A DNA stretch of 64,000 nt from Thermoplasmata archaeon (GTDB lineage: Archaea; Thermoplasmatota; Thermoplasmata; Thermoplasmatales; GCA-001856825): the NCBI GenBank assembly GCA_023256615.1, contig JAGDXO010000022.1, positions 5,672 to 69,671 of the forward strand. Reading direction: 5' to 3'. Each line of letters begins with the position of its first letter. The stretch's first letter is position 1. Shown piece after piece: positions 1 to 53,846 of the stretch. The notes beneath the pieces were generated by a model, which searched no databases, was not told where the DNA came from, and saw only the letters and a list, made by a program, of their open reading frames with translations. A program made the translations under genes and the position numbers.

Positions 1-1674
1 TTTGATTCTTCTCCAGTGTTCTTTTCACTGCTCGATTCAAAAGATGGAGGTTACTTCAAAATAGAACCCTTGGTAGACAATTTCCAGACAAGCCAAGAAT
101 ATGAAACAGATACCAATATACTGAAAACTAATTTTTTTAAAGATAAACAAAGGGTTCTCAGCATACTTGACTTCTTACCTATGACAAGGGAGAATTCCGT
201 TTATTTCTCAGAAATACATAGAAGGATAGAAGCTCTTTCTGATTTAGAAATAAAAATAACATTTGCTCCCTTTGCCACAAAAGAACGAAAGAATTTCATT
301 AAATTTGATGAAAAGGGCTATCTTGTTAAGACTCCTGAAAGAAGTCAGTTTCTTTCCGGTCATATAAATTTGGATAATATAGATGGTAAATTTCAGGGAA
401 ATATAAAAATGAAGACTGGGAAGGTTATCTGGTTAGTAAGCGCATACAATTTAACAAGAGCTTATTCTGTAGAGTTCTTCAACAGTGAAAAAAGATTATG
501 GGAAACCAGGAAATTCTGGAAGGAGTGGATTATAAGATCAAAATACCAGGGTGTATTTTATGAAACCGTGAATAGATCCTTGCTAATTTTGAAAGGCTTA
601 TTTTTTGAGCCAACCGGATTCATGGTAGCAGCTGCTACTACTTCTTTGCCTGAATCAATTGGTGGTGAAAGGAATTGGGATTATAGATATATGTGGATCA
701 GGGACACCGCTTACGTAATTGAGGCTATGGCCAAGGCTGGATTTGTTGATGAAGCAATGAAATTTTACTTGTCCATAATTGATAGGTATGAAAAAGACGG
801 TAGATTGTATTCACTTTATCCTATAAGTGAAGATGGTATCCTCAAGGAAGAAATAGCTGAACTTCCTGGCTACGAAAACACTGCACCTGTAAGATTTGGA
901 AATGATGCCCACAATCAGCTTCAGATTGATCAGTATGCTTCCTTTATAAGCGGGCTCAGAATTTTGATAGAAAATGGGGGTTATCTAAGTATTCATACAT
1001 TGGAGAAGGTACTTTCTGTAGGTGAAAAATTGGAGGAAATATGGAATCAGCCAGATTCTTCGATATGGGAGATCCGTGGCGAGAAGCGCAATTTTGTCTA
1101 TTCAAAATTGATGGCCTGGAAAGCTTTCGTGGATCTTGGTTGGTTATCTTCTTCCCTTGGGATGGATGAGCTCAAGAATAGATATGAAAATATTGCTTCT
1201 CAGATTAGACTGGATATTCTTAATAATGGAATAAGCAAGCGTGGTTACTATTCGCAAAGTTACGGATCAGATGAGTTAGACGCTTCTCTTCTTAGGATGC
1301 CCTTGGTCGGATTTTGCGATTTTAGCGACCCCATTTATGTAAACACATTTAATGCTATTGAGAAATATCTGATGAAAGAAAATTTTCTATTCAAAAGGTA
1401 TACTCTGGATGATGGATTGAAGGGAGAGGATAATGCCTTTCTTATGCTTACATACTGGTATATTAGAAATCTGATGATAGCAGGAAATCTGGATAAAGCA
1501 TCCAATATACTGATAGGCATAATTAATAAGATGAATTCACTTGGGATTTTACCTGAAGAATTAGAATTTCGAACTGGAAGATATCTTGGCAACTATCCGC
1601 AGGCTCTTAGCCATTTATCATTAGTTCTTACAATATTCGATTATAATGAAAAGATAAAGAAAATTAATATCTGA
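1..1674 (+). CDS. Glycoside hydrolase family 15 protein (glucoamylase/trehalase-like), probably 5'-truncated by the window edge
   Basis: The ORF track gives 16..1674, but the frame is open back to nt 1. GH15-type motif NWDYRYMWIRDTAY and an (alpha/alpha)6-type C-terminal region. 552 aa looks short for the family's N-terminal domain. Lies convergent with otsA. Confidence 0.8.
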   Translation, partial: FDSSPVFFSLLDSKDGGYFKIEPLVDNFQTSQEYETDTNILKTNFFKDKQRVLSILDFLPMTRENSVYFSEIHRRIEALSDLEIKITFAPFATKERKNFIKFDEKGYLVKTPERSQFLSGHINLDNIDGKFQGNIKMKTGKVIWLVSAYNLTRAYSVEFFNSEKRLWETRKFWKEWIIRSKYQGVFYETVNRSLLILKGLFFEPTGFMVAAATTSLPESIGGERNWDYRYMWIRDTAYVIEAMAKAGFVDEAMKFYLSIIDRYEKDGRLYSLYPISEDGILKEEIAELPGYENTAPVRFGNDAHNQLQIDQYASFISGLRILIENGGYLSIHTLEKVLSVGEKLEEIWNQPDSSIWEIRGEKRNFVYSKLMAWKAFVDLGWLSSSLGMDELKNRYENIASQIRLDILNNGISKRGYYSQSYGSDELDASLLRMPLVGFCDFSDPIYVNTFNAIEKYLMKENFLFKRYTLDDGLKGEDNAFLMLTYWYIRNLMIAGNLDKASNILIGIINKMNSLGILPEELEFRTGRYLGNYPQALSHLSLVLTIFDYNEKIKKINI

Positions 1675-1709
1675 TTCAACACCTTACCAAAATGGATGGA
1701 TATACTTTC

Positions 1710-3047
1710 TTAAGATTCTTTTAAAATCATTCCATTTATCCAATTATTTATGTCGTATTTTCTTATGAATTCCCTCATTTTTGATGCTCTATCTACTTTT
1801 ATCTCATCGGATATTTCCAGTATATTCCTGATTGCTGTTGAGAATTCCTCGAGATTAAAAGGGTTAACTTTTTCCGTTGCTTCTATGTAATGTGAAATAC
1901 CAGCAAATTTTGATAAAATGAGTAAACCGTTTCTATTGCTTGATATGTATTCTTCAGCTACAAGATTTAGCCCGTCCATTATTGGGGTCACCAAAAAAGC
2001 GTCAGAATTCCTGTACAAAGAAAATACTTCAGATTGTGTTATTTTACGGTAAATGTAGATAACAGGTGTCCATTCTGGAGTTCTTAACATTGAGTTCATA
2101 TTTCCTACAAGCTTGTCTATGCTTTCTTTATACCATTTGTACTCGTTTACTTCCTCCCTTGAGGGGCTGACAACAAGAACAAGAACAACCTTCCCATTAA
2201 ATTTTGGATTATTAATCAAAAAATGTCTGAAGGCTTCAAGCTTTTGTAGTATACCTTTTGTATAATCTAGTCTTGATAGCGAGCTTATTATCTTAATACC
2301 TTTTAGTTTAATTCTTTTGAGTTCTTCATCAAATTTATTCTTTCTTATCTCTACATTCTCGTATTCAGAATAATCAATTCCAAGCGGTATGGCAACAACT
2401 CTTCTTTCGAGAGTTTGATATGAATACTTTTGGCTTATCATTCCCTTAGATGTTTCAAGAAAATTATTCTTGTAGGATGGTAAATGGAATCCAATTTTCT
2501 GGGCACCTGAGATCCCGCTAACGATTTCTTTTATCCAAGGGAACATTTGTAGATATTCAGGAGATACCCATGGTATATGCCAGAAAAAACTTATTTTTTC
2601 AAAGCCTTTTTCATTTAGCTCCCCTGGGACCAAGGATAAATGGTAATCATTAACAAGAATACTCTCTCTGCTTTCTATCTCATTAGATATTTTATTTACC
2701 ATCTTGATATTTGATTCCCTGTATGATAGCCAGGGTTCAACCCTAAAAATATCGGCCTTTCTCAAATAATGAAAAATTGGCCATAAATAGTTATTGCAGA
2801 ATTCTCCATAATACAATTTATTTTTTTCTCTATCGATACTAATTCTGTGTATCGTCATATTCGTTATCTCATCTACACCTTCTTCACTGTCAAAACAGAA
2901 CCAATTTATTCGGTGATTTTTTCTTAATGAAGAAAGGCCTCCGACTAGGCCTCCTGTGTTCAATTCAGAAAATTTATCCTTGTTAGCCTTAAATGGACAT
3001 CTGTACGAAGCTATATTTATTCTCTCAGGGAAATTTTTCATTGTCAA
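1710..3047 (-). CDS. otsA: Trehalose-6-phosphate synthase (GT20, OtsA-like)
   Basis: 445 aa. GT20 hallmarks LWPIFHY, NDYHL and FFWHIPWVSPE, plus a C-terminal nucleotide-sugar binding half (MDGLNLVAEEY). Confidence 0.85.
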   Translation of the reverse strand: MTMKNFPERINIASYRCPFKANKDKFSELNTGGLVGGLSSLRKNHRINWFCFDSEEGVDEITNMTIHRISIDREKNKLYYGEFCNNYLWPIFHYLRKADIFRVEPWLSYRESNIKMVNKISNEIESRESILVNDYHLSLVPGELNEKGFEKISFFWHIPWVSPEYLQMFPWIKEIVSGISGAQKIGFHLPSYKNNFLETSKGMISQKYSYQTLERRVVAIPLGIDYSEYENVEIRKNKFDEELKRIKLKGIKIISSLSRLDYTKGILQKLEAFRHFLINNPKFNGKVVLVLVVSPSREEVNEYKWYKESIDKLVGNMNSMLRTPEWTPVIYIYRKITQSEVFSLYRNSDAFLVTPIMDGLNLVAEEYISSNRNGLLILSKFAGISHYIEATEKVNPFNLEEFSTAIRNILEISDEIKVDRASKMREFIRKYDINNWINGMILKES

Positions 3048-3192
3048 TTCATGCGTGAATCTCTTATAATATTTGCCTTGTGTTCATATATAAAATTAAT
3101 TATTTTTAATTTAAATTTTCAAAATTAAAAAAGTTTAAATATTCGATTTTAATTGCTAAGCAACAATAGGTTGATAACCAGAGGTGGTAATC

Positions 3193-3732
3193 ATGGTGAT
3201 TAGAAAAATAAGGAAGAAGGATGATGATGAATTCTGGGATGATATATATGAATTCCTGGAAAATGCTGATAGGGAATATAGAAAAATGTTCGAAAGATGG
3301 TTCGATACATTCGATGAAATAGAGAATATGAAAGATCAGCCGGGCACTTATGTCTATGGATTTACATACAAGGTAGGTCCAGATGGTAAACCAGTATTCC
3401 AAGAATTCGGAAATGTGCCAAAGGAATATTCAGAACTTCCAAGTCCGGAATATAGGGAACCGGCAACAGACATTCAAGAAAGGGAAAATGAGATATATGT
3501 TACTCTAGAGATGCCAGGGGTCAATAAGGAGGATATATCACTAGACGTGCAGGATAACACTCTAATTATAAAAGTTGACAGAGAAGGGAGAAAGTATTAC
3601 AAAGAGATAGAATTGGAAGATAAAATAGACCCAGATAAAATCAAGGCAACCTATTCAAATGGAGTCTTAGACATAGTCATTAAGAAAATTGAGCCGAAGA
3701 AAAAATCTGGAAAGAAAATTCCTATACAGTAA
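3193..3732 (+). CDS. hsp20: Small heat shock protein, Hsp20/alpha-crystallin family
   Basis: Alpha-crystallin domain (DIQERENEIYVTLEMPGVNKEDISLDV ... ATYSNGVLDIVIKK). The ATG at 3193 is preceded by GAGGTGG. The ORF track starts at the GTG at 3184. Confidence 0.85.
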   Translation: MVIRKIRKKDDDEFWDDIYEFLENADREYRKMFERWFDTFDEIENMKDQPGTYVYGFTYKVGPDGKPVFQEFGNVPKEYSELPSPEYREPATDIQERENEIYVTLEMPGVNKEDISLDVQDNTLIIKVDREGRKYYKEIELEDKIDPDKIKATYSNGVLDIVIKKIEPKKKSGKKIPIQ

Positions 3733-3734
3733 GT

Positions 3735-4265
3735 ATGACAGATATATTGGACCTGATAGATAATGAGATAAGAAGGAAAATACTCAGTATATTATCTATC
3801 AGGCCTTCTTATATTTTTGAACTTGCTAAAACACTTGGTACATCACAGCAGTTGATTTCTAAGCATTTAAAGATACTCGAAGATAGTGGTTTGGTTTACA
3901 AAATAGGAAAATTCGATTCTGAAGAAGGTCCTCAGAGAATTCTATATAAAGCAAATGCCCCTCTTCTTTCCTTATTGCAGTTCATTGAAAAAATTTCTCT
4001 TATGAACTTTGATAATGAAGATGAGGTTGATGAAAGAGATGTTGATATTGATAAACTTATTTCTGATCTCAAGTCCATAGATTCCGAGATTTCAGTTCTG
4101 GAGAGCAAAATAAAAGAACTAATTATAAGACAGCAGAGCATTCTCCTGAAGATCAATGAAATATTGAATGAAATGGATACTTCATCCTTGTTTAATCTTA
4201 TGGATGATGCTCTTAAGCGTGGGAATTTTGAAATTATTCTGGATGCTTTAAATAAGGTTCTTTAA
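3735..4265 (+). CDS. ArsR-type winged-helix transcriptional regulator with C-terminal coiled-coil
   Basis: HTH region RRKILSILSIRPSYIFELAKTLGTSQQLISKHLKILEDSGLVYK. Starts 2 nt after the hsp20 stop. Confidence 0.7.
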   Translation: MTDILDLIDNEIRRKILSILSIRPSYIFELAKTLGTSQQLISKHLKILEDSGLVYKIGKFDSEEGPQRILYKANAPLLSLLQFIEKISLMNFDNEDEVDERDVDIDKLISDLKSIDSEISVLESKIKELIIRQQSILLKINEILNEMDTSSLFNLMDDALKRGNFEIILDALNKVL

Positions 4266-41565: not shown

Positions 41566-43327
41566 TTTTCAACACCTCTGGTAAAGAATATGCTCCAAGC
41601 AATTTTGAATCTGGCAGATTGACATAAATTTCAGAGGAATCTATGATTTCCCTGTCAAAATTCAATTCCACCTTCTCAAAAGGAGCAAGATTGTTGACTT
41701 TCTGTCTCCATTCACCTTCTCCTTTTAATAACACGGTGAATGAAAGCCTTTCCTCAGTATAATTCTCTGCAAACAGCTTTCCATCTATTTCTCTGAATGC
41801 TACTACCCCCATAACTTTGGAAATTATAGGCTTAATATCCGGCTCCTCCATTCTCAATATTGAGGAGGCTTTCTTTGAAATTGCAGGTATAATCTGCTCT
41901 ATAAGAGAAAATTTCTCCTCAACATGTGTTTTATGTTCTTCCTTTGTTTTCATTGCCCTTATTTGTCTGCCAATTTTTTTAATTACAACATCAAGAGAAT
42001 CAAGTATTTCAGGCACAGGCGCAACAGCTTCTTTAGCCTCAGAGGTATAAGGAATTTTGGTACTTGCAATATGAACCACCATTATAACTGGGCCTATAGG
42101 CAATTGGTCTTTTACAGGCTGAGACAATCCATATTGATTCCATGATATTGAAGAAATGGCCTTCGTAATTGCACAACTTCCCTGCTGATATAGTAAAGGA
42201 ACTCTATTTGTAAATCTTAAAATTTTAACAGGTTCTTCTTTCGGGATATTCCCACCATAAACGGCAATCGCCTCTATAATGAAAGGATGTCCAGAGTATA
42301 CAAAAGGTCCCTTTGAAACAGGCATGGAGAAATATGCTGGATGCATATCTTCGAAAGAATTCAATACACTCTTATAAAGGGCCTCTTCACCGATAGGGGA
42401 CAGAGACTCTTTATTTGGCTCCATAAAGTCAAAACTCTGCATGGTATTCCACAAATTTTCAAAGTCCTTCTGATGCAATTGTGATACGCTCTTCTGGCTA
42501 AGCCCGCTTTTATGAACTATTTCCTTGGAAATATTGGAAGTTATCCTAGAAAAACTATCAGAAATTATTTTTTCTATTGGCTCTTTCTCCCTCTCTCTCA
42601 AAATCGACATAAGCTCCCCCAATTCTACACCATGTGGATGAGGCTTTACTGCTTCCGGGATTTTAGGAGCTTCATTTATGCTTCTTTCAATCTCGAATTT
42701 TCTTTCAGGGAGGAAAACATGGAATGATGCATGAGGGTTTGCTATTGCTGTTTGACGAATATATTCCTCAATCGATTGCTTCCCTCCAACAATTTTTCCT
42801 TTCAATACGAGAGAAATTTTTAACCCGCTATTGACATTCCAAATAATTGGCTCAATAGAATGAATCAAGGGCTCATTTTTCTTGACATTTATTTCAAGAA
42901 TGAAGTGAAAAGCAGTAACATCATCTTTTGTTTTAGTTATAATATCCGCAGGAAGTCCGGTTGTTTTCTGGGCATACATTATCGCTGCTGTTATACCAAG
43001 ACCCTGCTGACCTCTGGTCTGCCTTACTAAATGAAATCTCGATCCATAAAGCATTTTACCAAAAGAGTCCGCCACTTCCTTTCTCGGGATGCCTGGTCCA
43101 TTATCGGTGACAGTTACCTTAAACTTATCCTGTTCAACATTCTCTATTTCCAAGGTAATATCAGGCAGTATTCCGTGATCTCCGCAGGCGTCCAATGAAT
43201 TATCTATGGCCTCCTTTACTGTCATAAAAAGAGCTTTCTGTGGAGAGTCAAATCCAAGCATCTGTTTATTTTTATCGAAAAACTCGGAAATTGATACGGC
43301 TTTTCTTTCAGGGTCAATTATCTTCAT
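41558..43327 (-). CDS. top6B: DNA topoisomerase VI subunit B (GHKL ATPase)
   Basis: Bergerat fold motifs EAIDNSLDA, DNGPGI and GQQGLG. 589 aa. Confidence 0.9.
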   Translation of the reverse strand: MKIIDPERKAVSISEFFDKNKQMLGFDSPQKALFMTVKEAIDNSLDACGDHGILPDITLEIENVEQDKFKVTVTDNGPGIPRKEVADSFGKMLYGSRFHLVRQTRGQQGLGITAAIMYAQKTTGLPADIITKTKDDVTAFHFILEINVKKNEPLIHSIEPIIWNVNSGLKISLVLKGKIVGGKQSIEEYIRQTAIANPHASFHVFLPERKFEIERSINEAPKIPEAVKPHPHGVELGELMSILREREKEPIEKIISDSFSRITSNISKEIVHKSGLSQKSVSQLHQKDFENLWNTMQSFDFMEPNKESLSPIGEEALYKSVLNSFEDMHPAYFSMPVSKGPFVYSGHPFIIEAIAVYGGNIPKEEPVKILRFTNRVPLLYQQGSCAITKAISSISWNQYGLSQPVKDQLPIGPVIMVVHIASTKIPYTSEAKEAVAPVPEILDSLDVVIKKIGRQIRAMKTKEEHKTHVEEKFSLIEQIIPAISKKASSILRMEEPDIKPIISKVMGVVAFREIDGKLFAENYTEERLSFTVLLKGEGEWRQKVNNLAPFEKVELNFDREIIDSSEIYVNLPDSKLLGAYSLPEVLKNE

Positions 43328-44097
43328 AAATCTGCAAACTTAGGATTAACTTTATATTTATTTATATTTGCTGCCATCTTCTGAAAAAAGAATCTTGCCA
43401 TCTCGGGAGAGTAAATTAATAAAGAATTCACTCCCTTAACGGCCGCCTCTATGCACGCCTCTACCGGGGCAAAAGGAATCGCATCAATACTTAATTTATC
43501 TGTAAGGGATTTAGCTATCACTCCATAGGTTCCGATGACTTTTATGTTATTCTTTTTAATGAAATCTCTCAGTTTCCTTGAATTTGCCTCTATCGAATAA
43601 TCTTTGTAATCAATGTGCATTATGTAAAGATCGCCTATTTTATAATCTATTATACCTTCCATATTCTTTACTATTATTGGGTCTCCAGGATTTCCATCTA
43701 TTTCTGCTATGCCCCTTGATTTAGATTTCATTTTCTTAGTAGCACACAGAACTCCATTTTTCATTATTAAGAAAACCCTATCATTTTTCTTAATCCTTTC
43801 TAAAGAAATTGCTTCACAGCTTGATATAAAACCCATCTCATCATAAGCTTTTTCAGCTAAATTGGTCATATTAGCAAGAAATTTCTGTAAAAAAGCAATA
43901 CCTCCAGGCGTCACATTCAAATCTTTATCAATTAGTCCATCCTTAACAAGCATTTTGATATAATTTGACGCACCTTGAGGTGTTATTTTAAGTTCAGATG
44001 AAATTTCCCTCAATTTCTTTTTATTTTTTAAAAGCTCTATTAGAATTAATGCCCTTGTAAGGGCTCCTTTCTCTCTCAGTTCAAGAAGGGAATCCAT
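43324..44097 (-). CDS. Winged-helix transcriptional regulator with uncharacterised C-terminal domain
   Basis: N-terminal HTH (LREISSELKITPQGASNYIKMLVKDGLI). Its stop overlaps the top6B start by 4 nt. Confidence 0.55.
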   Translation of the reverse strand: MDSLLELREKGALTRALILIELLKNKKKLREISSELKITPQGASNYIKMLVKDGLIDKDLNVTPGGIAFLQKFLANMTNLAEKAYDEMGFISSCEAISLERIKKNDRVFLIMKNGVLCATKKMKSKSRGIAEIDGNPGDPIIVKNMEGIIDYKIGDLYIMHIDYKDYSIEANSRKLRDFIKKNNIKVIGTYGVIAKSLTDKLSIDAIPFAPVEACIEAAVKGVNSLLIYSPEMARFFFQKMAANINKYKVNPKFADL

Positions 44098-44127: not shown

Positions 44128-44316
44128 TTAAACCCATGTCAGTCTTTCAATTTTCCTATCCTCTTTTGTTTCTTTCTTAAATTTCTTATAATGTTCCTTG
44201 CATAAATGAACTTTAGTTTTCTGAGTACTTAAGGAAAAAACCTTTTCCGCCTCTTTTTTACTGACCGTTTTGAATTTTGGATTTTTACACCCTACAACTT
44301 CGCAGTATTCTTCCAT
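44128..44316 (-). CDS. Small basic Cys/His (zinc-ribbon-like) protein, 62 aa
   Basis: CEVVGC ... HLCKEH arrangement with a Lys-rich tail. Transcribed divergently from the T4SS-like operon. Confidence 0.45.
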   Translation of the reverse strand: MEEYCEVVGCKNPKFKTVSKKEAEKVFSLSTQKTKVHLCKEHYKKFKKETKEDRKIERLTWV

Positions 44317-44375
44317 TTTTAATGATTTAATTTGTACTTATAATCTTTTATATTATTGACAGTAAGAATAAATAT

Positions 44376-44383
44376 TTTATATA
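44376..44383 (+). promoter_or_regulatory. TATA-box-like element upstream of the pilin-like gene
   Basis: TTTATATA lies 28-35 nt upstream of the ATG at 44411, and a GGAGGGG stretch sits at 44402-44408. Whether the mRNA is short-leadered or SD-led cannot be decided from sequence. Confidence 0.35.
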
Positions 44384-44410
44384 TGTATGTAATATCAGCC
44401 AGGAGGGGCC

Positions 44411-44764
44411 ATGAAAAGGAATGCAATATTGATAGTTGCATTACTGGCTGTGCTATCGGTTCAAATCCCGATGGCACATGGCCAGCTAATGAATTCAAGT
44501 ATAACTGCATTGGCAACAACTAGTACGAATTCAACACAGATTAATGGAATTGTAGATAGGGCTTTTGGTATTGTTGCTGGAGTTGCTGGACTGGTAATCG
44601 CAATTTTGTGGGTTCCTATTGCAATAGGCTATTTCTCTAGAGACCTAGATAGAAAGGCAGATGCAAAGGAAAGAACAAAGGATGCATTAATCGGTACTAT
44701 AATTTTCGTAATGGCAATAAGTGGAGTCCTTTACGCAGTGATTCATTACATAGTTGTTGGTTGA
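44411..44764 (+). CDS. VirB2/TrbC/CedA1-like pilin candidate (signal peptide plus two-helix hairpin)
   Basis: 117 aa. Sec-type signal MKRNAILIVALLAVLSVQIPMAHG. NSS and NST sequons. Two hydrophobic helices (AFGIVAGVAGLVIAILWVPIAIGYF and ALIGTIIFVMAISGVLYAVIHYIVV) separated by the charged loop SRDLDRKADAKERTKD. Confidence 0.6.
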   Translation: MKRNAILIVALLAVLSVQIPMAHGQLMNSSITALATTSTNSTQINGIVDRAFGIVAGVAGLVIAILWVPIAIGYFSRDLDRKADAKERTKDALIGTIIFVMAISGVLYAVIHYIVVG

Positions 44765-44774
44765 TAAGATAACA

Positions 44775-45815
44775 ATGGATGCTTACTATTCGATAGGGTC
44801 AGTAGTACTATCCATAATCAGCTACCTAGTATCAGTCTTTACTGCAGGGGGGCTTTCACTACTTATTAATATCTACAATTTATACATTTCAAGGTATTTA
44901 TTGTCCCCTAACCAGGCGTATCCCAGTATAGTATCAGGTACAATTGGGAAAGGGGTTCAGTCACTTTATTACTTTTCACTCTTTCAAATATATGATCCTA
45001 TTTTTTCAATTGTGCTGATAATACTAGGAATAACAATACTTCTGAACAGTAGCTTATCCCTTGGATATAATTTTAAGCACATATGGATAAAAATATTCCT
45101 TATCCTTTTATTGTCTAACATATCATTTTTTCTTTCACAGGACTTACTATATTTAGGATATCTAATTTATTTACAACTTTGGGATTATGGCATCCCCAAT
45201 CATAATTTTTCACAGGGTATAAACATTCTATCTGGTGTACAGTTAGGGGGTACAGCAGGTTCAGAAGTCAGCTTTTTAATACTAATTATTTTTATTTTTC
45301 TAATATTATTCTTAGTGCTTTTTCTCTCAATGAGGCTGGCTATAATTTATACTTTCCCTATTTTACTGCCAATTCTATCAATACTTTATTTGATTCCACA
45401 AACCAAGGAGCTAGCAAGGAGAGGTTGGGATATATTTATAGACTCCATTTTTGCCCCCATTTTAATGGCTTTTCCTTTAATACTGGCTACTTACGTTGTA
45501 AACAACAGCGTTCTAACATTAGGGTTTCTTGCCCTAACAGATTCAATTCCAATAATGTTATCAAAATCCTCGGCTTCGAGAATATCAACTCTATTTTTAG
45601 GTCAGGCAGTCTCTACTGGTACCCAAAGATCGATTGGAATAGCAGTAGGCCTTACTGGCCCTATGAGAAATATAGTTTCTTTTTTTAAAAATGCAGAAAT
45701 GGCAAAAGGACCAAGTAATAATTCAAGAAATAATTCAACAGGTTCATCCAGACAATATTCTAGCAGGAACACAGCAAATTATTCTCAATCTCAGTTCTTC
45801 AGAGGTAAGCCCTGA
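44775..45815 (+). CDS. Polytopic membrane protein, VirB6/TrbL/CedA-like candidate
   Basis: About 7-8 predicted TM helices followed by a Ser/Asn-rich hydrophilic tail. The ATG at 44775 lies 10 nt after the pilin stop. The ORF track starts at the TTG at 44754. Confidence 0.5.
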   Translation: MDAYYSIGSVVLSIISYLVSVFTAGGLSLLINIYNLYISRYLLSPNQAYPSIVSGTIGKGVQSLYYFSLFQIYDPIFSIVLIILGITILLNSSLSLGYNFKHIWIKIFLILLLSNISFFLSQDLLYLGYLIYLQLWDYGIPNHNFSQGINILSGVQLGGTAGSEVSFLILIIFIFLILFLVLFLSMRLAIIYTFPILLPILSILYLIPQTKELARRGWDIFIDSIFAPILMAFPLILATYVVNNSVLTLGFLALTDSIPIMLSKSSASRISTLFLGQAVSTGTQRSIGIAVGLTGPMRNIVSFFKNAEMAKGPSNNSRNNSTGSSRQYSSRNTANYSQSQFFRGKP

Positions 45816-46396
45816 TGGTTCATATAATGAAATTTAGACAGGTTACTCTTAAATTAGGTCCTCTAGAAGATATCCTGCTATATAGGGCCTTAATTTTATC
45901 ATCTATAGTTATCTTTTCAGTTTTCATAATTGGATTTTATGGTTTATTAAGCATCATCATTATGATAATCTTTCTATTTCGGATAAACGATGATTTCCTA
46001 GATCAGTACCTTATCAAAATTATTAAGGGTGACAAGAGAGTTGAGCTAATAAATATCGCGGACAAGTATCAGTTATATGAGATATTCTCAGAAACGTATG
46101 GCTATTCTGAATTTCAGGATAGAGAAATAATAAGTAAATGGACAGGATTTATAAGCACCTTTAAATCAGATATCTTGATAATAAGATTTCCTTACAGGAT
46201 TCCGATAGAGAATTTTAAAGATAAAAACGATGGATACAATTCTTTATTTGATAAGAGTACTTATGTCGGGGAGGCTTATTTTATAGGCGTTTTTAAAGAA
46301 TTATCAGAAGATTTCGAAAACAAGGCTTCTGTTTCAGGTTTATTTTTTAGAAAATTGGAAGAAAATGAGGTGAAGGAACTAGATGGTTTCATCTGA
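45815..46396 (+). CDS. Membrane-hairpin protein (VirB3-like / detached VirB4 N-terminal region candidate)
   Basis: 193 aa. N-terminal double hydrophobic segment ALILSSIVIFSVFIIGFYGLLSIIIMIIFLF followed by a soluble domain. TGATG stop/start overlap upstream and a 14-nt overlap with the ATPase downstream. Confidence 0.4.
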   Translation: MVHIMKFRQVTLKLGPLEDILLYRALILSSIVIFSVFIIGFYGLLSIIIMIIFLFRINDDFLDQYLIKIIKGDKRVELINIADKYQLYEIFSETYGYSEFQDREIISKWTGFISTFKSDILIIRFPYRIPIENFKDKNDGYNSLFDKSTYVGEAYFIGVFKELSEDFENKASVSGLFFRKLEENEVKELDGFI

Positions 46397-47963
46397 AAAA
46401 AAGTCAAAAGGAACTCAGAAGGCGGATTATATGATAAAAAATTCTTCAGCGATATCGTACCTCGGCGTGAGAGATATACCATTTGAACTAAGAGACGACT
46501 TCAGAATAAGAATAGCCTATGGTGGAAGATATGTTGGGCAGATAATACATATACACCATATCCCTGAGAGAAGTAGCTGGACAATAATTACACGTGAAAT
46601 AGAGAAGATAACTCTAAATCTTGTAGGTAAGGAGAACGTGAACGATCATCAAAATGAAAAGAATAAAATTGCTCTATCAAATTTGAATTCTTTAAAGGAA
46701 GATATTGCATCTGGTAAATCATCTATATTGAGATATTCAATGAGCTATTTTATAAGGGCCGAACCTTCTAAATTGAGAATAATTAAGGAAGAACTCATTA
46801 AAAATCTAAGAAATTTAGGCGTACAATTAAATATCTCATTATTTGATGATTACAGGACCAGAAATAAAACTATAACGGGGCAGCAGAAAGGGGTGTTTTT
46901 AAATCCGGAGTCAGTTTCATACCTAATACCGGTAAATTACTCTTATACACTTCAGGACGGAGGAACCTTTTATGGAATAGATGAAATAACAAAGGCTCCC
47001 GTATTTCTGAACAGAAAAAAATTTCCATCTTCCCACGAATTGGTTTTAGGTATGACCGGATTTGGAAAATCTTTTTTCATAAAAATTACAATGATGAGGG
47101 AAAAGATTTCAAGAGGAATAAATGTAAAGATAATAGATCCCTTGGGCGAGTACGAAAATGTTAGTCTTACTATCGGGTCTAAAAAAATAGATCTTTTAAA
47201 TATGGAAATGAACATGTTTGAAAAAATTGAATATTTATCAATAAAGGAAAACGTTGATAGAGCTTTAGCATTATTCATTACCTTATTTGATTTAAACACT
47301 GAGGACAAGGGAATAATTGATACCGCTTTAACTCTGATGTTCGAAAACGATCAAAGTATCAAATTTCTACAGGAATTTATCAAAAATAATAGACCAGAAA
47401 CTTACAGCAAAATATCACCATTGTTTGAAGGTTCCTTGAGAAAATTTGTGACAGGAAAGAACCCAGATCTTAGAGGGGACGTAATAATAAACCTTGGAAA
47501 CATCCCAAAGAGATTATTGAGTTTTTACATGCTCTTATCGCTTGATTTGATAATGAGAATTAATGAAGAAAAGGAGACTAATTTGATAATTGATGAGGCA
47601 CACTATCTGATGAGTGAAGACACAGTCACGTCTCTTGAAAGATATTTGAGACACGCGAGACATAATAATATCTCTATGATTTTAATATCACAATCTGCAA
47701 ATGATTTTTCAAGATCTAAATCAACTATTTCGATAATGGAAAACTGTTCGATACATATATTATTTAGGCATCAAAATGTTAACGATGAAATTATAAATTT
47801 TTATAATTTAGATGAAAAGCTTATAGATTTTGTAAAATATGGCGCTGGCTTTAATGGAAAATATTCCCTAGCTATAATGAAGGTTCCAGGTTATGAGTCA
47901 ATTTTACGAATAGAGTCAAATAAATGGGAAATGGGATTATTGAATGAAGTACGTAAAAGTTAA
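46383..47963 (+). CDS. VirB4/TrbE/CedB-like type IV secretion ATPase
   Basis: Walker A LGMTGFGKSFF followed by VKIIDPLGEY, Walker B NLIIDEAHYLMS, then ISMILISQSANDF and CSIHILFRHQ. This order and spacing is typical of VirB4-family ATPases. Confidence 0.65.
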   Translation: MVSSEKKSKGTQKADYMIKNSSAISYLGVRDIPFELRDDFRIRIAYGGRYVGQIIHIHHIPERSSWTIITREIEKITLNLVGKENVNDHQNEKNKIALSNLNSLKEDIASGKSSILRYSMSYFIRAEPSKLRIIKEELIKNLRNLGVQLNISLFDDYRTRNKTITGQQKGVFLNPESVSYLIPVNYSYTLQDGGTFYGIDEITKAPVFLNRKKFPSSHELVLGMTGFGKSFFIKITMMREKISRGINVKIIDPLGEYENVSLTIGSKKIDLLNMEMNMFEKIEYLSIKENVDRALALFITLFDLNTEDKGIIDTALTLMFENDQSIKFLQEFIKNNRPETYSKISPLFEGSLRKFVTGKNPDLRGDVIINLGNIPKRLLSFYMLLSLDLIMRINEEKETNLIIDEAHYLMSEDTVTSLERYLRHARHNNISMILISQSANDFSRSKSTISIMENCSIHILFRHQNVNDEIINFYNLDEKLIDFVKYGAGFNGKYSLAIMKVPGYESILRIESNKWEMGLLNEVRKS

Positions 47964-50001
47964 TAACATAAGAAAGGTTGATCCTGGGAACCCAGTGCTA
48001 CTTTCATATCTAAAGCATAATTTAACATTGGATATGGTATATTTAAAGAAATATGGAAATCCACCTATGTTGTTAGTGCAAAAAAACAATGAAGAAGTCT
48101 TTAATTCTATTGGAATTGAAACTGGGGGAGAAATCGAATTTTCGGGAAAAGGAAGAAAATTATCAATTAAAGGGGACCACAGATTAATAGATTTTCCAGA
48201 TAAGAATATAGGTGACAGAATAATTGAAATATTGAATAATGAAGATCATGGTTACATCGGAATTAAAATTAAAAGGCATTATTTTGCGACCCCCAATACC
48301 CTCAATAAGAGCAAGAATTTGAACAAAAATGACGAAAGTAAGAAGAATAATCTAAGGGAAGGATGGAAACTGGAGATAGAAACAAATAATACTTCGTTAA
48401 AAAATTATATAAGCCACCTATTTTCCAATAATAAAATAAGAGTCTCATTCAGGAAATGGATCCATAGCTCTCCCACTATAGCCTGGTGGGAAATATCATA
48501 TTTTTTACCTACCAGAATATTAATGAGAAGTGAAAAAGGAATAAAAATCGGTAACACAAATAAGTCAGGTCCAATAATTATTGATCCTAATAAAGAATTT
48601 CATTCTCTTATAATTGGTTCTACAGGAAGTGGAAAAAGCTCACTTGTTTTTAACACAATAAAGAATATCTTGAAAACAAAATCCGGAAAAGTTATATTAA
48701 TAGATCCTCATGGCGATACAGCCTATAAGTTGAGTAAAACAGAATATAATTTTTATGAAATTTCAGGGGAATCAAGTAATGGAATAAATATTCTGCATAA
48801 TTACGATGATAAGAATATTAATTTCAGAATTGCGGAAGATTTCGTATCCATACTTAAATCTACAAGGGAAATGCAATTCTCTGAATCATTTATAGGGCCA
48901 AGAATAGAAGATTTAATCTCGAGAGGAATAGTAGCAATATCCAATGTTCAGGGAGCAACAATTGTAGATCTTTATAATATTTTTAAAAGCCAAGAATCAA
49001 GAAATAAAATTTTAAAATCTAATGAAAACCAAGAACTTAAAAAATTTATAGAAGAAATCGAGGAATTACCCAAAGAGGAGATTGCAGGGACTGAAAGAGC
49101 TCTTGGTAGACTAGCTCTAGATCCTTTTATTAGATCGTTAATATGTAATCCAAAAGATGGTGGTATATTGAATAAGGAAATAGATAAGAATGATTTGATC
49201 CTAATAAATTTAGAAAGAGGATTGATTGGTTATGAAGATTCTCGTATTTTATCAAATATATTAGCCGTATATATCTGGTTTATAATAACTTCTAAAAGAA
49301 ACGGTAACTATTATTTATTTCTTGAAGAAGCCCAGGATTACCAAAGCAAATTTATCTCCGATATGATATCTACTGGAAGAAAATTTGGTCTAAGAATTTT
49401 TTTTATAACTACTTCTTTTAAAGTAATTTCATCAAATCTTGAGGCATTATTCTTCTCGAATATTTCAAATTACATAGTTATGAAGCTTTCAGAACCTGAT
49501 AAAGTAGATTTTGAGAAATTTATGGGATTTCCAATAAATTTTTCTGACGAACAATTAAAATTTACACTTATTTCCTCCAACACGCAAATGAAAGGATACA
49601 CTGATAAGGTTCTATTTGAACCGCATAAATCCAAATTCAAAGAATCAAAATATAGTTTCTTAACTGATACAGAAAATGATAACGATTTATCCATAAAAAT
49701 ATCTGATATATTATCTACTTTCGAATCGAGGGAAAAAACGTTTTTTATTTACGAAACATTCGCAAATTATCTCAGCAATTACGAAAAATCAAAGGTAATA
49801 TCAAATCTAAAGAAAATTTTAAAGGAAAATCAGAGTGTTCAATACATTGGAAGATTTAATATAGATTTTCAGAAAATAAGCGGGAGGTATGAAGTTTTTT
49901 TGTTTACTGGAACATCCAGTGCGGTTATAAAACAGTCCAAAATACCACATTTATTTGAAATATATAGTGATTATATAGAATCGTTAATAGTTACGAAATG
50001 A
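47944..50001 (+). CDS. HerA/FtsK-superfamily ATPase, VirD4/TraG-like coupling-protein candidate (no N-terminal TM)
   Basis: Walker A IIGSTGSGKSSL followed by VILIDPHGD, Walker B YYLFLEEAQDY, then GRKFGLRIFFITTS. 685 aa. Confidence 0.55.
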   Translation: MKYVKVNNIRKVDPGNPVLLSYLKHNLTLDMVYLKKYGNPPMLLVQKNNEEVFNSIGIETGGEIEFSGKGRKLSIKGDHRLIDFPDKNIGDRIIEILNNEDHGYIGIKIKRHYFATPNTLNKSKNLNKNDESKKNNLREGWKLEIETNNTSLKNYISHLFSNNKIRVSFRKWIHSSPTIAWWEISYFLPTRILMRSEKGIKIGNTNKSGPIIIDPNKEFHSLIIGSTGSGKSSLVFNTIKNILKTKSGKVILIDPHGDTAYKLSKTEYNFYEISGESSNGINILHNYDDKNINFRIAEDFVSILKSTREMQFSESFIGPRIEDLISRGIVAISNVQGATIVDLYNIFKSQESRNKILKSNENQELKKFIEEIEELPKEEIAGTERALGRLALDPFIRSLICNPKDGGILNKEIDKNDLILINLERGLIGYEDSRILSNILAVYIWFIITSKRNGNYYLFLEEAQDYQSKFISDMISTGRKFGLRIFFITTSFKVISSNLEALFFSNISNYIVMKLSEPDKVDFEKFMGFPINFSDEQLKFTLISSNTQMKGYTDKVLFEPHKSKFKESKYSFLTDTENDNDLSIKISDILSTFESREKTFFIYETFANYLSNYEKSKVISNLKKILKENQSVQYIGRFNIDFQKISGRYEVFLFTGTSSAVIKQSKIPHLFEIYSDYIESLIVTK

Positions 50002-50668: not shown

Positions 50669-50790
50669 AGCGTATTGCTATAGTTCTTTTGCTCATTGTG
50701 CACCTGGTGATCTTGTATCATCAGGGAAGGACTGAAATCCTTTTTAGGATTAATGAAGGTCAGCATAGGGTTAAGATATAGAGAATGGAG

Positions 50791-53709
<2,919 letters not shown>

Positions 53710-53846
53710 TCCATTTTACTTAACCCTTGCTGATTGTGAGCATTTTTTATTTCCGAAATAATGTGAATAAATTTTTATCTACCCTAAATAAATTTTTTAA
53801 AAATGGTATAGGAAATCAAATTTTAAAGAAATTATTGGTAAAAGAA

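Follow-up and report, generated by a model that had tools for sequence, protein, structure and literature searches.

Conjugation-derived machines that exchange DNA and are encoded on the chromosome have been worked out only in Thermoproteota, where Ced and Ted are known. Ced, from Sulfolobales and related orders, consists of CedA, CedA1, CedA2, CedB and CedD, while Ted, from Thermoproteales, consists of the pilin TedC, TedA, the VirB4-like TedB and the VirD4-like TedD. CedD is a second, VirD4-like ATPase that is essential for DNA import, and TedD is encoded inside the Ted loci (PMC11823120). Some CedD orthologues have no membrane anchor (PMC11823120). The nature of CedD is disputed, as it has been described both as a coupling protein (PMC11823120) and as the second half of a split VirB4 (PMC11868833). 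Wu et al. consider CedD a paralog of CedB and superpose the N-terminal domain of each on a different portion of that of VirB4 (PMC11868833). In Thermoplasmatales, Golyshina et al. (2016) described Cuniculiplasma chromosomes that carry a VirB4 cluster with membrane proteins and an ATPase of the TraG/TraD/VirD4 family (PMC5155288). Here, we analyzed a 64,000-nt stretch of a Thermoplasmata archaeon (GenBank contig JAGDXO010000022.1, positions 5,672 to 69,671), referred to below as the window, in which two overlapping genes encode P-loop ATPases of 526 and 685 amino acids (aa).

The two genes stand at the 3' end of a five-gene cluster that includes a pilin. At a probability of roughly 0.55, we read them as the pair of motors in a machine that derives from conjugation, is fixed in the chromosome and would serve acid-loving Thermoplasmatales for DNA exchange. 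The two-motor arrangement is the expected one, since every conjugative type IV system pairs VirB4 with a coupling protein (PMC12102498) and archaeal plasmids such as pSOG1 and a Halalkalicoccus plasmid likewise pair a VirB4-like with a coupling-like ATPase. An earlier note on this DNA, made from the sequence alone, had set the pair against a Ced system with a single ATPase, which is out of date because the VirD4-like CedD/TedD was added in 2025. As Ced and Ted thus already have a second ATPase, the cluster is most fittingly classed with Ced/Ted, as a Thermoplasmatales variant of such domesticated conjugation-like DNA-exchange machinery.

The first ATPase is VirB4-like

The 526-aa protein contains a Walker A motif, GMTGFGKS (residues 223-230, nt 47049-47072), and a Walker B motif, IIDEAH (residues 401-406, nt 47583-47600). 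A Kyte-Doolittle scan found no hydrophobic segment in it. When its family profile was compared with the PDB, the C-terminal domain of Thermoanaerobacter VirB4 (4ag5) came first with an E-value of 2.4e-15; the next best entry had 1.7e-7, and HerA-like entries trailed far behind 4ag5. The NCBIfam model VirB4-like CD1110 matches residues 12-470 (E 5e-25) with 87.8 bits against a cut-off of 325, and VirB4_CagE gives 38 bits against a cut-off of 643. By these scores, the protein is VirB4-like and lies outside both bacterial equivalog families.

Plasmid-borne relatives agree with this placement. A tblastn search of annotated plasmids with the 526-aa protein returned 268 records, haloarchaeal and Sulfolobus plasmids among them, and the genes under the matches are named VirB4-like CD1110, TraC or TrsE. 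The family profile scores a haloarchaeal plasmid transfer protein at 116 bits and the TrbE-like protein of pSOG1 at 107 bits. The genomic company of the gene also fits a VirB4, as a pilin that passes the Pfam T4SS_pilin cut-off and two membrane proteins lie directly upstream in all loci.

As the earlier note remarked, the protein is shorter than bacterial VirB4s (TrwK 823 aa, TraC 875 aa, TcpF 841 aa). The difference reflects a shorter N-terminal region, as Walker A begins at residue 223 instead of at residues 451-492. This size is normal for archaeal VirB4-like proteins, since hhalign aligns it nearly end to end with a 650-aa 'transfer complex protein' from a haloarchaeal plasmid (residues 30-532 against 53-641; 99%, E 7e-18).

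The second ATPase groups with coupling proteins

Comparisons at the sequence level place the motor domain of this 685-aa protein among ATPases that resemble type IV coupling proteins (TraG/TraD/TrwB/CedD-like), apart from its neighbour, from HerA and from FtsK. In Pfam, the 685-aa protein matches DUF87 best ('HerA central domain', 40 bits), and the NCBIfam models for CedB, VirB4, EccC, HerA and TraD all score below 30 bits and nearly equally. Single-sequence NCBIfam scoring was rejected as a classifier of this family, which has near-equal weak matches to EccC, CedB, VirB4, HerA, CedD and TraD. Because of these, the classification needed an exhaustive search and labelled references.

We searched 1.84 billion representative proteins with a profile for relatives of the 685-aa protein. 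The full-length architecture was found only in a handful of Thermoplasmatales clusters, while the motor core is common to thousands of proteins. Among the 69 nearest sampled relatives, Pfam TrwB_AAD_bind is found in 63, TraG-D_C in 49, T4SS-DNA_transf in 21 and HerA_C in four. With NCBIfam models, 66 of the 69 match TraD, 48 match CedD and ten match HerA. A hidden Markov model (HMM) built from the relatives only scores the 685-aa protein at 261 bits and its VirB4-like neighbour at 52 bits, and when the relatives' profile was compared with the PDB, TrwB came first (E 3.4e-15).

The labelled references were taken from R388, F, pCW3, pSOG1, a Halalkalicoccus plasmid and the ftsK and yjgR genes of E. 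coli. The 685-aa family profile scores highest on proteins named 'type IV secretion system DNA-binding domain' (93 and 46 bits) and the TraG-like protein of pSOG1 (40 bits), followed by TcpA (27), FtsK (17), its own neighbour (15) and TrwB (12), with VirB4s and YjgR at 5 bits or less. With the profile of the 526-aa family, the pattern is the converse. In the plasmid tblastn search, the best matches of the 685-aa protein are likewise named as type IV secretion system (T4SS) DNA-binding domain proteins. TcpA is its top PDB sequence match, limited to the Walker A region (E 5e-6), and Pfam FtsK_SpoIIIE reaches 19.5 bits against a cut-off of 24.

A neighbour-joining tree of the motor cores (200 bootstraps) places the 526-aa family in the VirB4 clade (61%). 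The 685-aa family is recovered with 100% support next to its sister group, the stand-alone Thermoplasmata ATPases (80%), and lies inside a coupling-like clade with the TraG-like protein of pSOG1 and the haloarchaeal protein (77%). FtsK, TcpA and TcpB form a clade of their own, apart from this family. Given the moderate supports and a reference set without archaeal HerA and Ced/Ted ATPases, the tree shows different branches and not exact positions. The stand-alone relatives are soluble proteins of 840-900 aa from other Thermoplasmata (loci L023, 8001-10712, and L024, 8001-10535). They sit at a conserved site of their own, in the order UbiA, PcrB, ATPase, DEAD-box helicase and MarC, away from secretion genes.

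These results bear out part of what the earlier note had claimed for the pair. Coordinates, lengths and the 20-nt overlap are confirmed. The two different ATPase classes are seen in separate profile scores, in the census of relatives and on different tree branches, as opposed to the simple paralogs that the note had weighed. In a profile-profile comparison of the two families, the ATPase core alone aligns (E 1e-6, 21% identity), and by this measure the proteins are not recent paralogs. The claim that the 685-aa protein has no hydrophobic N-terminal anchor also stands, as neither a hydrophobic segment (Kyte-Doolittle) nor a transmembrane helix (AlphaFold model) was found. An anchor is absent as well from 105 of the 139 nearest relatives in the same hydropathy scan.

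Domain architecture of the second ATPase

The AlphaFold model of the 685-aa protein (pLDDT 82.5) has a motor core between two terminal domains. The earlier note had called the approximately 215 residues before Walker A non-conserved. The region is indeed present but forms a confidently predicted fold (pLDDT mostly 80-95) and has many invariant residues within the family. Outside the family it is without sequence relatives: none were found in the PDB or Pfam, and only family members were found among the 1.84 billion proteins. The note had also suggested a search for a DNA-binding or relaxase-like fold here, and sequence profiles found neither. When the domain was searched alone with Foldseek, the best matches were all N-terminal regions of TrwK/VirB4 and were not significant (E 0.15-0.5, probability 0.63 or less); the fold search yielded no HerA-type barrel and no relaxase-like fold.

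The motor core carries Walker A GSTGSGKS (residues 225-232), IDPHGD (residues 253-258) and GRKFG (residues 478-482), as read from a motif alignment with 45 related and reference ATPases. The model places an all-helical insert of seven helices at residues 292-400; VirB4 and HerA have helical inserts too. The Walker B motif, LFLEE (residues 458-462, nt 49315-49329), has Glu in place of the usual Asp. This Glu is invariant in the family, while all 39 other FtsK-HerA ATPases in the alignment have Asp-Glu. The strand after Walker B ends in Thr-Thr-Ser (residues 489-491, nt 49408-49416), where others keep a conserved Gln. The Thr-Thr is common to the 685-aa family and the stand-alone Thermoplasmata relatives.

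The predicted elements of the C-terminal domain run helix, strand, helix, helix, strand, strand, helix, which is winged-helix order, and G636, R637, R648 and E650 are invariant. Comparing its sequence profile with the PDB and Pfam gave no match, and profile searches of the same databases assigned neither terminal domain to a relaxase-like or known DNA-binding family. The domain is possibly a DNA-binding winged helix, which is a hypothesis as it derives from the order of the modelled elements and sequence searches lend it no support.

A conserved cluster at one chromosomal site

The window is archaeal chromosome with a G+C content of about 35%. Close homologues of its proteins come only from metagenome-assembled genomes of Thermoplasmata/Thermoplasmatales, including the 'I-plasma' lineage of acid mine drainage. 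The cluster consists of five genes on the same strand, which encode a VirB2-type pilin, a polytopic membrane protein, a small membrane protein, the VirB4-like ATPase and the coupling-like ATPase (Table 1). Junctions within the cluster overlap by 1-20 nt. The overlap of the ATPase genes is retained in every intact orthologous locus and is exactly 20 nt in most of them, with other lengths hinging on the choice of start codon. Scanning the window with the HMM of the 685-aa relatives found no FtsK-HerA-type ATPase beyond these two.

Table 1. Features of the five-gene cluster, numbered from the first position of the window.
Feature	Position	Strand	Basis
A+T-rich intergenic region, putative promoter and ribosome-binding site of the cluster	44317..44410	+	Sequence inspection
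117-aa VirB2/TedC-type pilin	44411..44764	+	Pfam T4SS_pilin PF18895
Polytopic membrane protein, about 350 aa	44754..45815	+	Hydropathy; position kept in all loci
193-aa membrane protein	45815..46396	+	Hydropathy; conserved in all loci
526-aa VirB4-like ATPase	46383..47963	+	Profiles, plasmid tblastn, reference scoring, tree, hhalign
20-nt overlap of VirB4-like stop and second ATPase start	47944..47963	+	Read from the sequence; kept in orthologous loci
685-aa soluble coupling-protein-like ATPase, FtsK-HerA superfamily	47944..50001	+	Census of relatives, references, tree, AlphaFold model
Lineage-specific N-terminal alpha/beta domain of second ATPase, residues 1-215	47944..48588	+	AlphaFold models
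Motor core of second ATPase	48616..49389	+	Invariant columns, motif alignment, model secondary structure
C-terminal domain of second ATPase, residues 575-685	49666..49998	+	Model secondary structure

The order of genes around the cluster is topoisomerase VI A/B, a helix-turn-helix (HTH) regulator, a 62-aa gene, the five cluster genes and GINS23. This order from topoisomerase VI to GINS23 is identical in all 16 species-level Thermoplasmata genomes found and recurs in a further locus, L021. ATPase identities among the 16 syntenic genomes are 37-66%, with the lowest values at about 37-44%, and the reading frames of the cluster are all intact in 14 of the 16. All neighbouring window genes that we checked are housekeeping genes, and no integrase, relaxase, repeats or plasmid genes lie near the cluster in the window. 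The locus is a vertically inherited chromosomal site, given the fixed order in the 16 genomes and L021, the housekeeping surroundings and the lack of an integrase or relaxase; for these reasons, we rejected a mobile element as its identity.

Two of the 16 genomes show decay of the entire cluster. In L019 (4400-10030), all five cluster genes carry frameshifts or stops, and the flanking topoisomerase VI, HTH gene, 62-aa gene and GINS23 are intact. In L020 (6700-8900), the cluster is deleted save for fragments of the second ATPase gene, again with intact flanks. This joint decay suggests that the five genes act as one dispensable unit.

In the window, a complete 23S rRNA gene stands alone at 50789-53712, right after GINS23, with no 16S rRNA gene within the 64 kb. 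The rRNA genes are thus unlinked, a known trait of Thermoplasmatales.

Pilin and membrane proteins

The pilin scores 28.2 bits with Pfam T4SS_pilin PF18895, over the cut-off of 26.6 bits. It has a signal peptide, two hydrophobic helices and a basic loop (KDLDRKADAKERTKD), the helices being located with a Kyte-Doolittle scan for hydrophobic segments. Its identity across orthologous loci is 56-83%, which places the gene among the best conserved of the cluster and on par with the adjoining topoisomerase VI subunits. Just past the predicted signal peptide, near the mature N-terminus, is an N-x-S/T sequon (44526-44537, residues ~39-42) that is nearly invariant among orthologues and suggests a glycosylated pilin tip or surface. 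The pilin family profile found no match in the PDB.

The polytopic protein has at least six hydrophobic segments and an ambiguous start (TTG at 44754 or ATG at 44775). It occupies the slot of VirB6/CedA/TedA in known systems. As it matched nothing in Pfam or NCBIfam, we base the label VirB6-like on position and topology.

The 193-aa protein takes the position of VirB3, and every locus has it, at 30-58% identity. Its N-terminal part holds a single long hydrophobic stretch (about residues 20-55) and its C-terminal part is soluble, a layout with which a role as membrane tether for the ATPases is possible. Searches of the PDB, Pfam and NCBIfam found no match. We rejected it as the missing N-terminal part of a split VirB4, since it has no similarity to the haloarchaeal plasmid VirB4-like protein or to the 245-aa protein in the same position of L022. 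In this distant Thermoplasmata variant (241-4248), the 245-aa and a 95-aa protein replace the 193-aa protein, and the former has a faint match to Pfam TraC-like.

The intergenic region ahead of the pilin gene is shared with the divergent 62-aa gene, and GGAGG at 44402-44406 precedes the pilin ATG by 5 nt. Two genes diverge from this promoter region: one for a 62-aa basic protein with a C-x4-C ... C-x2-H pattern (44128-44316, minus strand), and one for a 257-aa winged-helix/DUF7839 protein (43324-44097, minus strand). Both are present in every locus, including one that lost the cluster, and because they persist there they are probably not dedicated cluster regulators.

Proposed mechanism and alternative explanations

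The gene set, the ATPase classes, vertical inheritance at one locus and joint decay are observed here; DNA as the substrate, the direction of transfer and, from bacterial systems, a split between an 'assembly motor' and a 'substrate motor' are what we infer. By analogy with bacterial type IV secretion and with Ced/Ted, the VirB4-like ATPase would dock at the membrane proteins and power pilin extraction and the assembly of a pilus or channel. The second ATPase would assemble into a ring and engage DNA, with its C-terminal domain as a possible contact, and the DNA would pass from the ring to the channel or the other way. The substrate would most likely be chromosomal DNA swapped within the population and used for recombination.

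Several results weigh against this reading. The Glu in Walker B throughout the family means that ATPase activity of the 685-aa protein is not assured. The protein also stays below the curated cut-off in each named family: TrwB_AAD_bind gives 15.7 bits against 20.5 in Pfam, HerA gives 20.9 bits against 970 in NCBIfam, and the NCBIfam CedD model NF053655 was not detected at E-values up to 1. Pfam T4SS-DNA_transf and TraG-D_C were not detected in it either. Within the family, member P0063 passes TrwB_AAD_bind (32.8 bits), and 16 of 19 members have weak matches to CedD NF053655 (best E 1.6e-7). In the tree, TrwB/TraD form the next branch to the coupling-like clade with a bootstrap of only 52%; the tree was computed without archaeal HerA, CedB, CedD, TedB and TedD, and its relatives were chosen by similarity to the query. 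On the model, the fold search does not separate HerA, VirB4 and TrwB: E-values of 1e-10 to 1e-12 were obtained for HerA, for TrwK/VirB4 at full length, for TrwB/VirD4 and for the C-terminal domain of VirB4. Overall, the structure that matches best is that of Gp156, an unnamed 825-aa protein of Bacillus phage G (E 4.7e-20, ~850 columns). There is no relaxase among neighbouring genes in the window or in related loci and no other DNA-processing gene in the cluster. Finally, the system is known here from sequence and models alone, and pili may also work in adhesion or in the delivery of proteins, with no part in DNA transfer.

Beside the phage G gene for Gp156, its neighbour Gp155 also matched the 685-aa model in a fold search against viral structures, and the jumbo phage may carry a similar ATPase pair.

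An explanation that we consider unlikely but worth weighing is that the two ATPases make up one VirB4-equivalent motor, in which the second supplies the N-terminal half of VirB4 that the short VirB4-like protein is missing, as proposed for CedB/CedD of Saccharolobus. It would account for the region before Walker A being about 220 aa in the VirB4-like protein and about 450-490 aa in TrwK, TraC and TcpF, and would fit the N-terminal fold matches, which all fall on TrwK/VirB4 chains, as well as the full-length fold alignments to TrwK and to phage proteins of ~800-900 aa, which cover at least 800 columns. The published superposition of the CedB and CedD N-terminal domains on different parts of VirB4 (PMC11868833) points the same way. 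However, these N-terminal matches do not reach significance, the motor domain groups with coupling-like proteins instead of VirB4, and the VirB4-like proteins of archaeal plasmids have N-terminal regions just as short, yet are accompanied by a separate TraG-like ATPase. We give slightly less credence to a real machine that does not move DNA, such as an adhesive or contact pilus, or a device for protein delivery, for example in contacts of Thermoplasmatales with other archaea of acid mine drainage, with the second ATPase recruiting a protein substrate. Such a role is consistent with a cluster that includes no relaxase or nuclease, with the many bacterial type IV systems that secrete proteins and still use a coupling protein (PMC12102498), and with cryo-tomography of acid-mine-drainage biofilms, which revealed pervasive pili and penetrating appendages on cells of Thermoplasmatales lineages (PMC4110969). 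Conversely, Ced and Ted, the sole characterised chromosomal relatives in archaea, move DNA and also have no relaxases (PMC9905601), and no candidate effector gene lies alongside the cluster in any locus.

It is highly improbable that the 685-aa protein acts in repair as a HerA-type helicase, or as an ATPase of anti-phage defence, and only happens to adjoin secretion genes, a grouping against which the earlier note had measured its own proposal. DUF87 is its best Pfam match, HerA structures are among the top fold matches, and its top score in the curated libraries is PADLOC mad8 of the MADS defence system (82.5 bits). Yet DUF87 and mad8 are generic for this branch: mad8 is also matched by the VirB4-like neighbour (52 bits) and by all 69 relatives, whose best E-value (3.9e-26) is marginally better than that of the window protein (9.1e-24). 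For this reason, a MADS identity was rejected; the mad models matched no other cluster protein and neither of the two upstream genes. The NCBIfam HerA score is far below its cut-off, as given above, HerA is absent from the fold matches of the N-terminal domain, and the neighbourhood has no NurA, Mre11, Rad50, methyltransferase or other mad gene. Orthologous loci keep the overlap of the 685-aa gene with the VirB4-like gene, and where the cluster decays, this gene decays with it. The chances are equally slim that the cluster is the leftover of an integrated conjugative element that no longer serves its host. Decay in two lineages would fit a remnant, as would plasmid transfer proteins being the closest labelled relatives. 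A remnant is at odds with a single insertion point and gene order in 16 species-level genomes with frames intact in 14 of them and second-ATPase identities as low as 37-40%, with a pilin conserved as well as the adjoining topoisomerase VI subunits, and with surroundings free of an integrase, repeats or plasmid genes.

Significance of the cluster

If the two genes are indeed the motors of a DNA-exchange machine, Thermoplasmatales have a stable, inherited counterpart of Ced and Ted, and domestication happened, or persisted, in a second archaeal phylum. Ferroplasma populations of acid mine drainage have mosaic genomes and high recombination (reviewed in PMC2704941), and the literature that we found names no mechanism for this. 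The cluster would then be a concrete candidate mechanism for mosaic genomes and recombination of the Ferroplasma type. The decayed clusters in L019 and L020 provide a natural loss-of-function control for a comparison of recombination rates. An in-operon second ATPase with no anchor also bears on whether CedD is a coupling protein (PMC11823120) or the second half of a split VirB4 (PMC11868833).

We tentatively put forward a wider reading, to which we assign odds short of even. The cluster would be the third domesticated archaeal conjugation lineage after Ced and Ted and the first outside Thermoproteota, and the route behind the homologous recombination that is frequent in acid-mine-drainage Thermoplasmatales populations. 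Its second motor would represent a new coupling-ATPase architecture, which is soluble and combines a Glu-Glu Walker B with a private N-terminal domain, faintly like half of that of VirB4, and with a DNA-binding tail resembling a winged helix. On the same reading, some of the pili that cryo-tomography revealed between cells might be products of the cluster.

Comparison with known systems

Ted is similar to the window cluster in being chromosomal and not a mobile element (PMC9905601, PMC11823120). Both have a VirB2-type pilin, a polytopic membrane protein and VirB4-like and coupling-like ATPases in one locus, without a relaxase. Unlike Ted, the window cluster belongs to Thermoplasmatota and not Thermoproteota, has no ParA/VirC1-like or Rad50 genes beside it and adds the 193-aa membrane protein. 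Its second ATPase differs from TedD, as compared by description only, in having N- and C-terminal domains of its own and a Glu-Glu Walker B. Ced likewise uses two FtsK-HerA-type ATPases in one machine, but the Ced genes of Sulfolobus are scattered and depend on Ups pili. Furthermore, the NCBIfam CedB model is only marginal for the window protein (29 bits against a cut-off of 700), and the CedD model was not detected.

Each window ATPase matches a different member of the archaeal plasmid pairs, which are the TrbE-like and TraG-like proteins of pSOG1 and the 'transfer complex protein' and T4CP-named protein of the Halalkalicoccus plasmid. The latter has both ATPases in one gene string, as in the window. 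However, these pairs are plasmid-borne and transfer the plasmid, whereas the window cluster lies in the core chromosome, and the TraG-like protein of pSOG1 (1063 aa) has the motor core alone in common with the 685-aa protein. With VirD4/TrwB/TraD, the 685-aa protein shares an FtsK-HerA branch by nearest-neighbour census and the motifs DP(H/N)GD and GRK(F/A)GL; the helical insert in its motor domain has counterparts in VirB4 and HerA as well. It differs from them in having no N-terminal anchor and no partner relaxase at the locus, in falling below the Pfam cut-offs and in a union with them of 52% bootstrap.

In Cuniculiplasma, the second ATPase is encoded elsewhere in the genome, while the window lineage has it in the operon and with different terminal domains. 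The VirB4-like cluster of L022 has no adjacent second ATPase; this and, as a separate observation, the stand-alone ATPases of other Thermoplasmata resemble the split arrangement of Cuniculiplasma. In the literature library searched, we found no analysis of a fixed chromosomal operon in Thermoplasmatales beyond the Cuniculiplasma annotation. Such an operon, with a second ATPase of distinct architecture, is what has been less described so far. Three traits of its second ATPase set it apart: the N-terminal domain is specific to the lineage, the C-terminal domain is possibly a winged helix, and Walker B has an invariant Glu-Glu.

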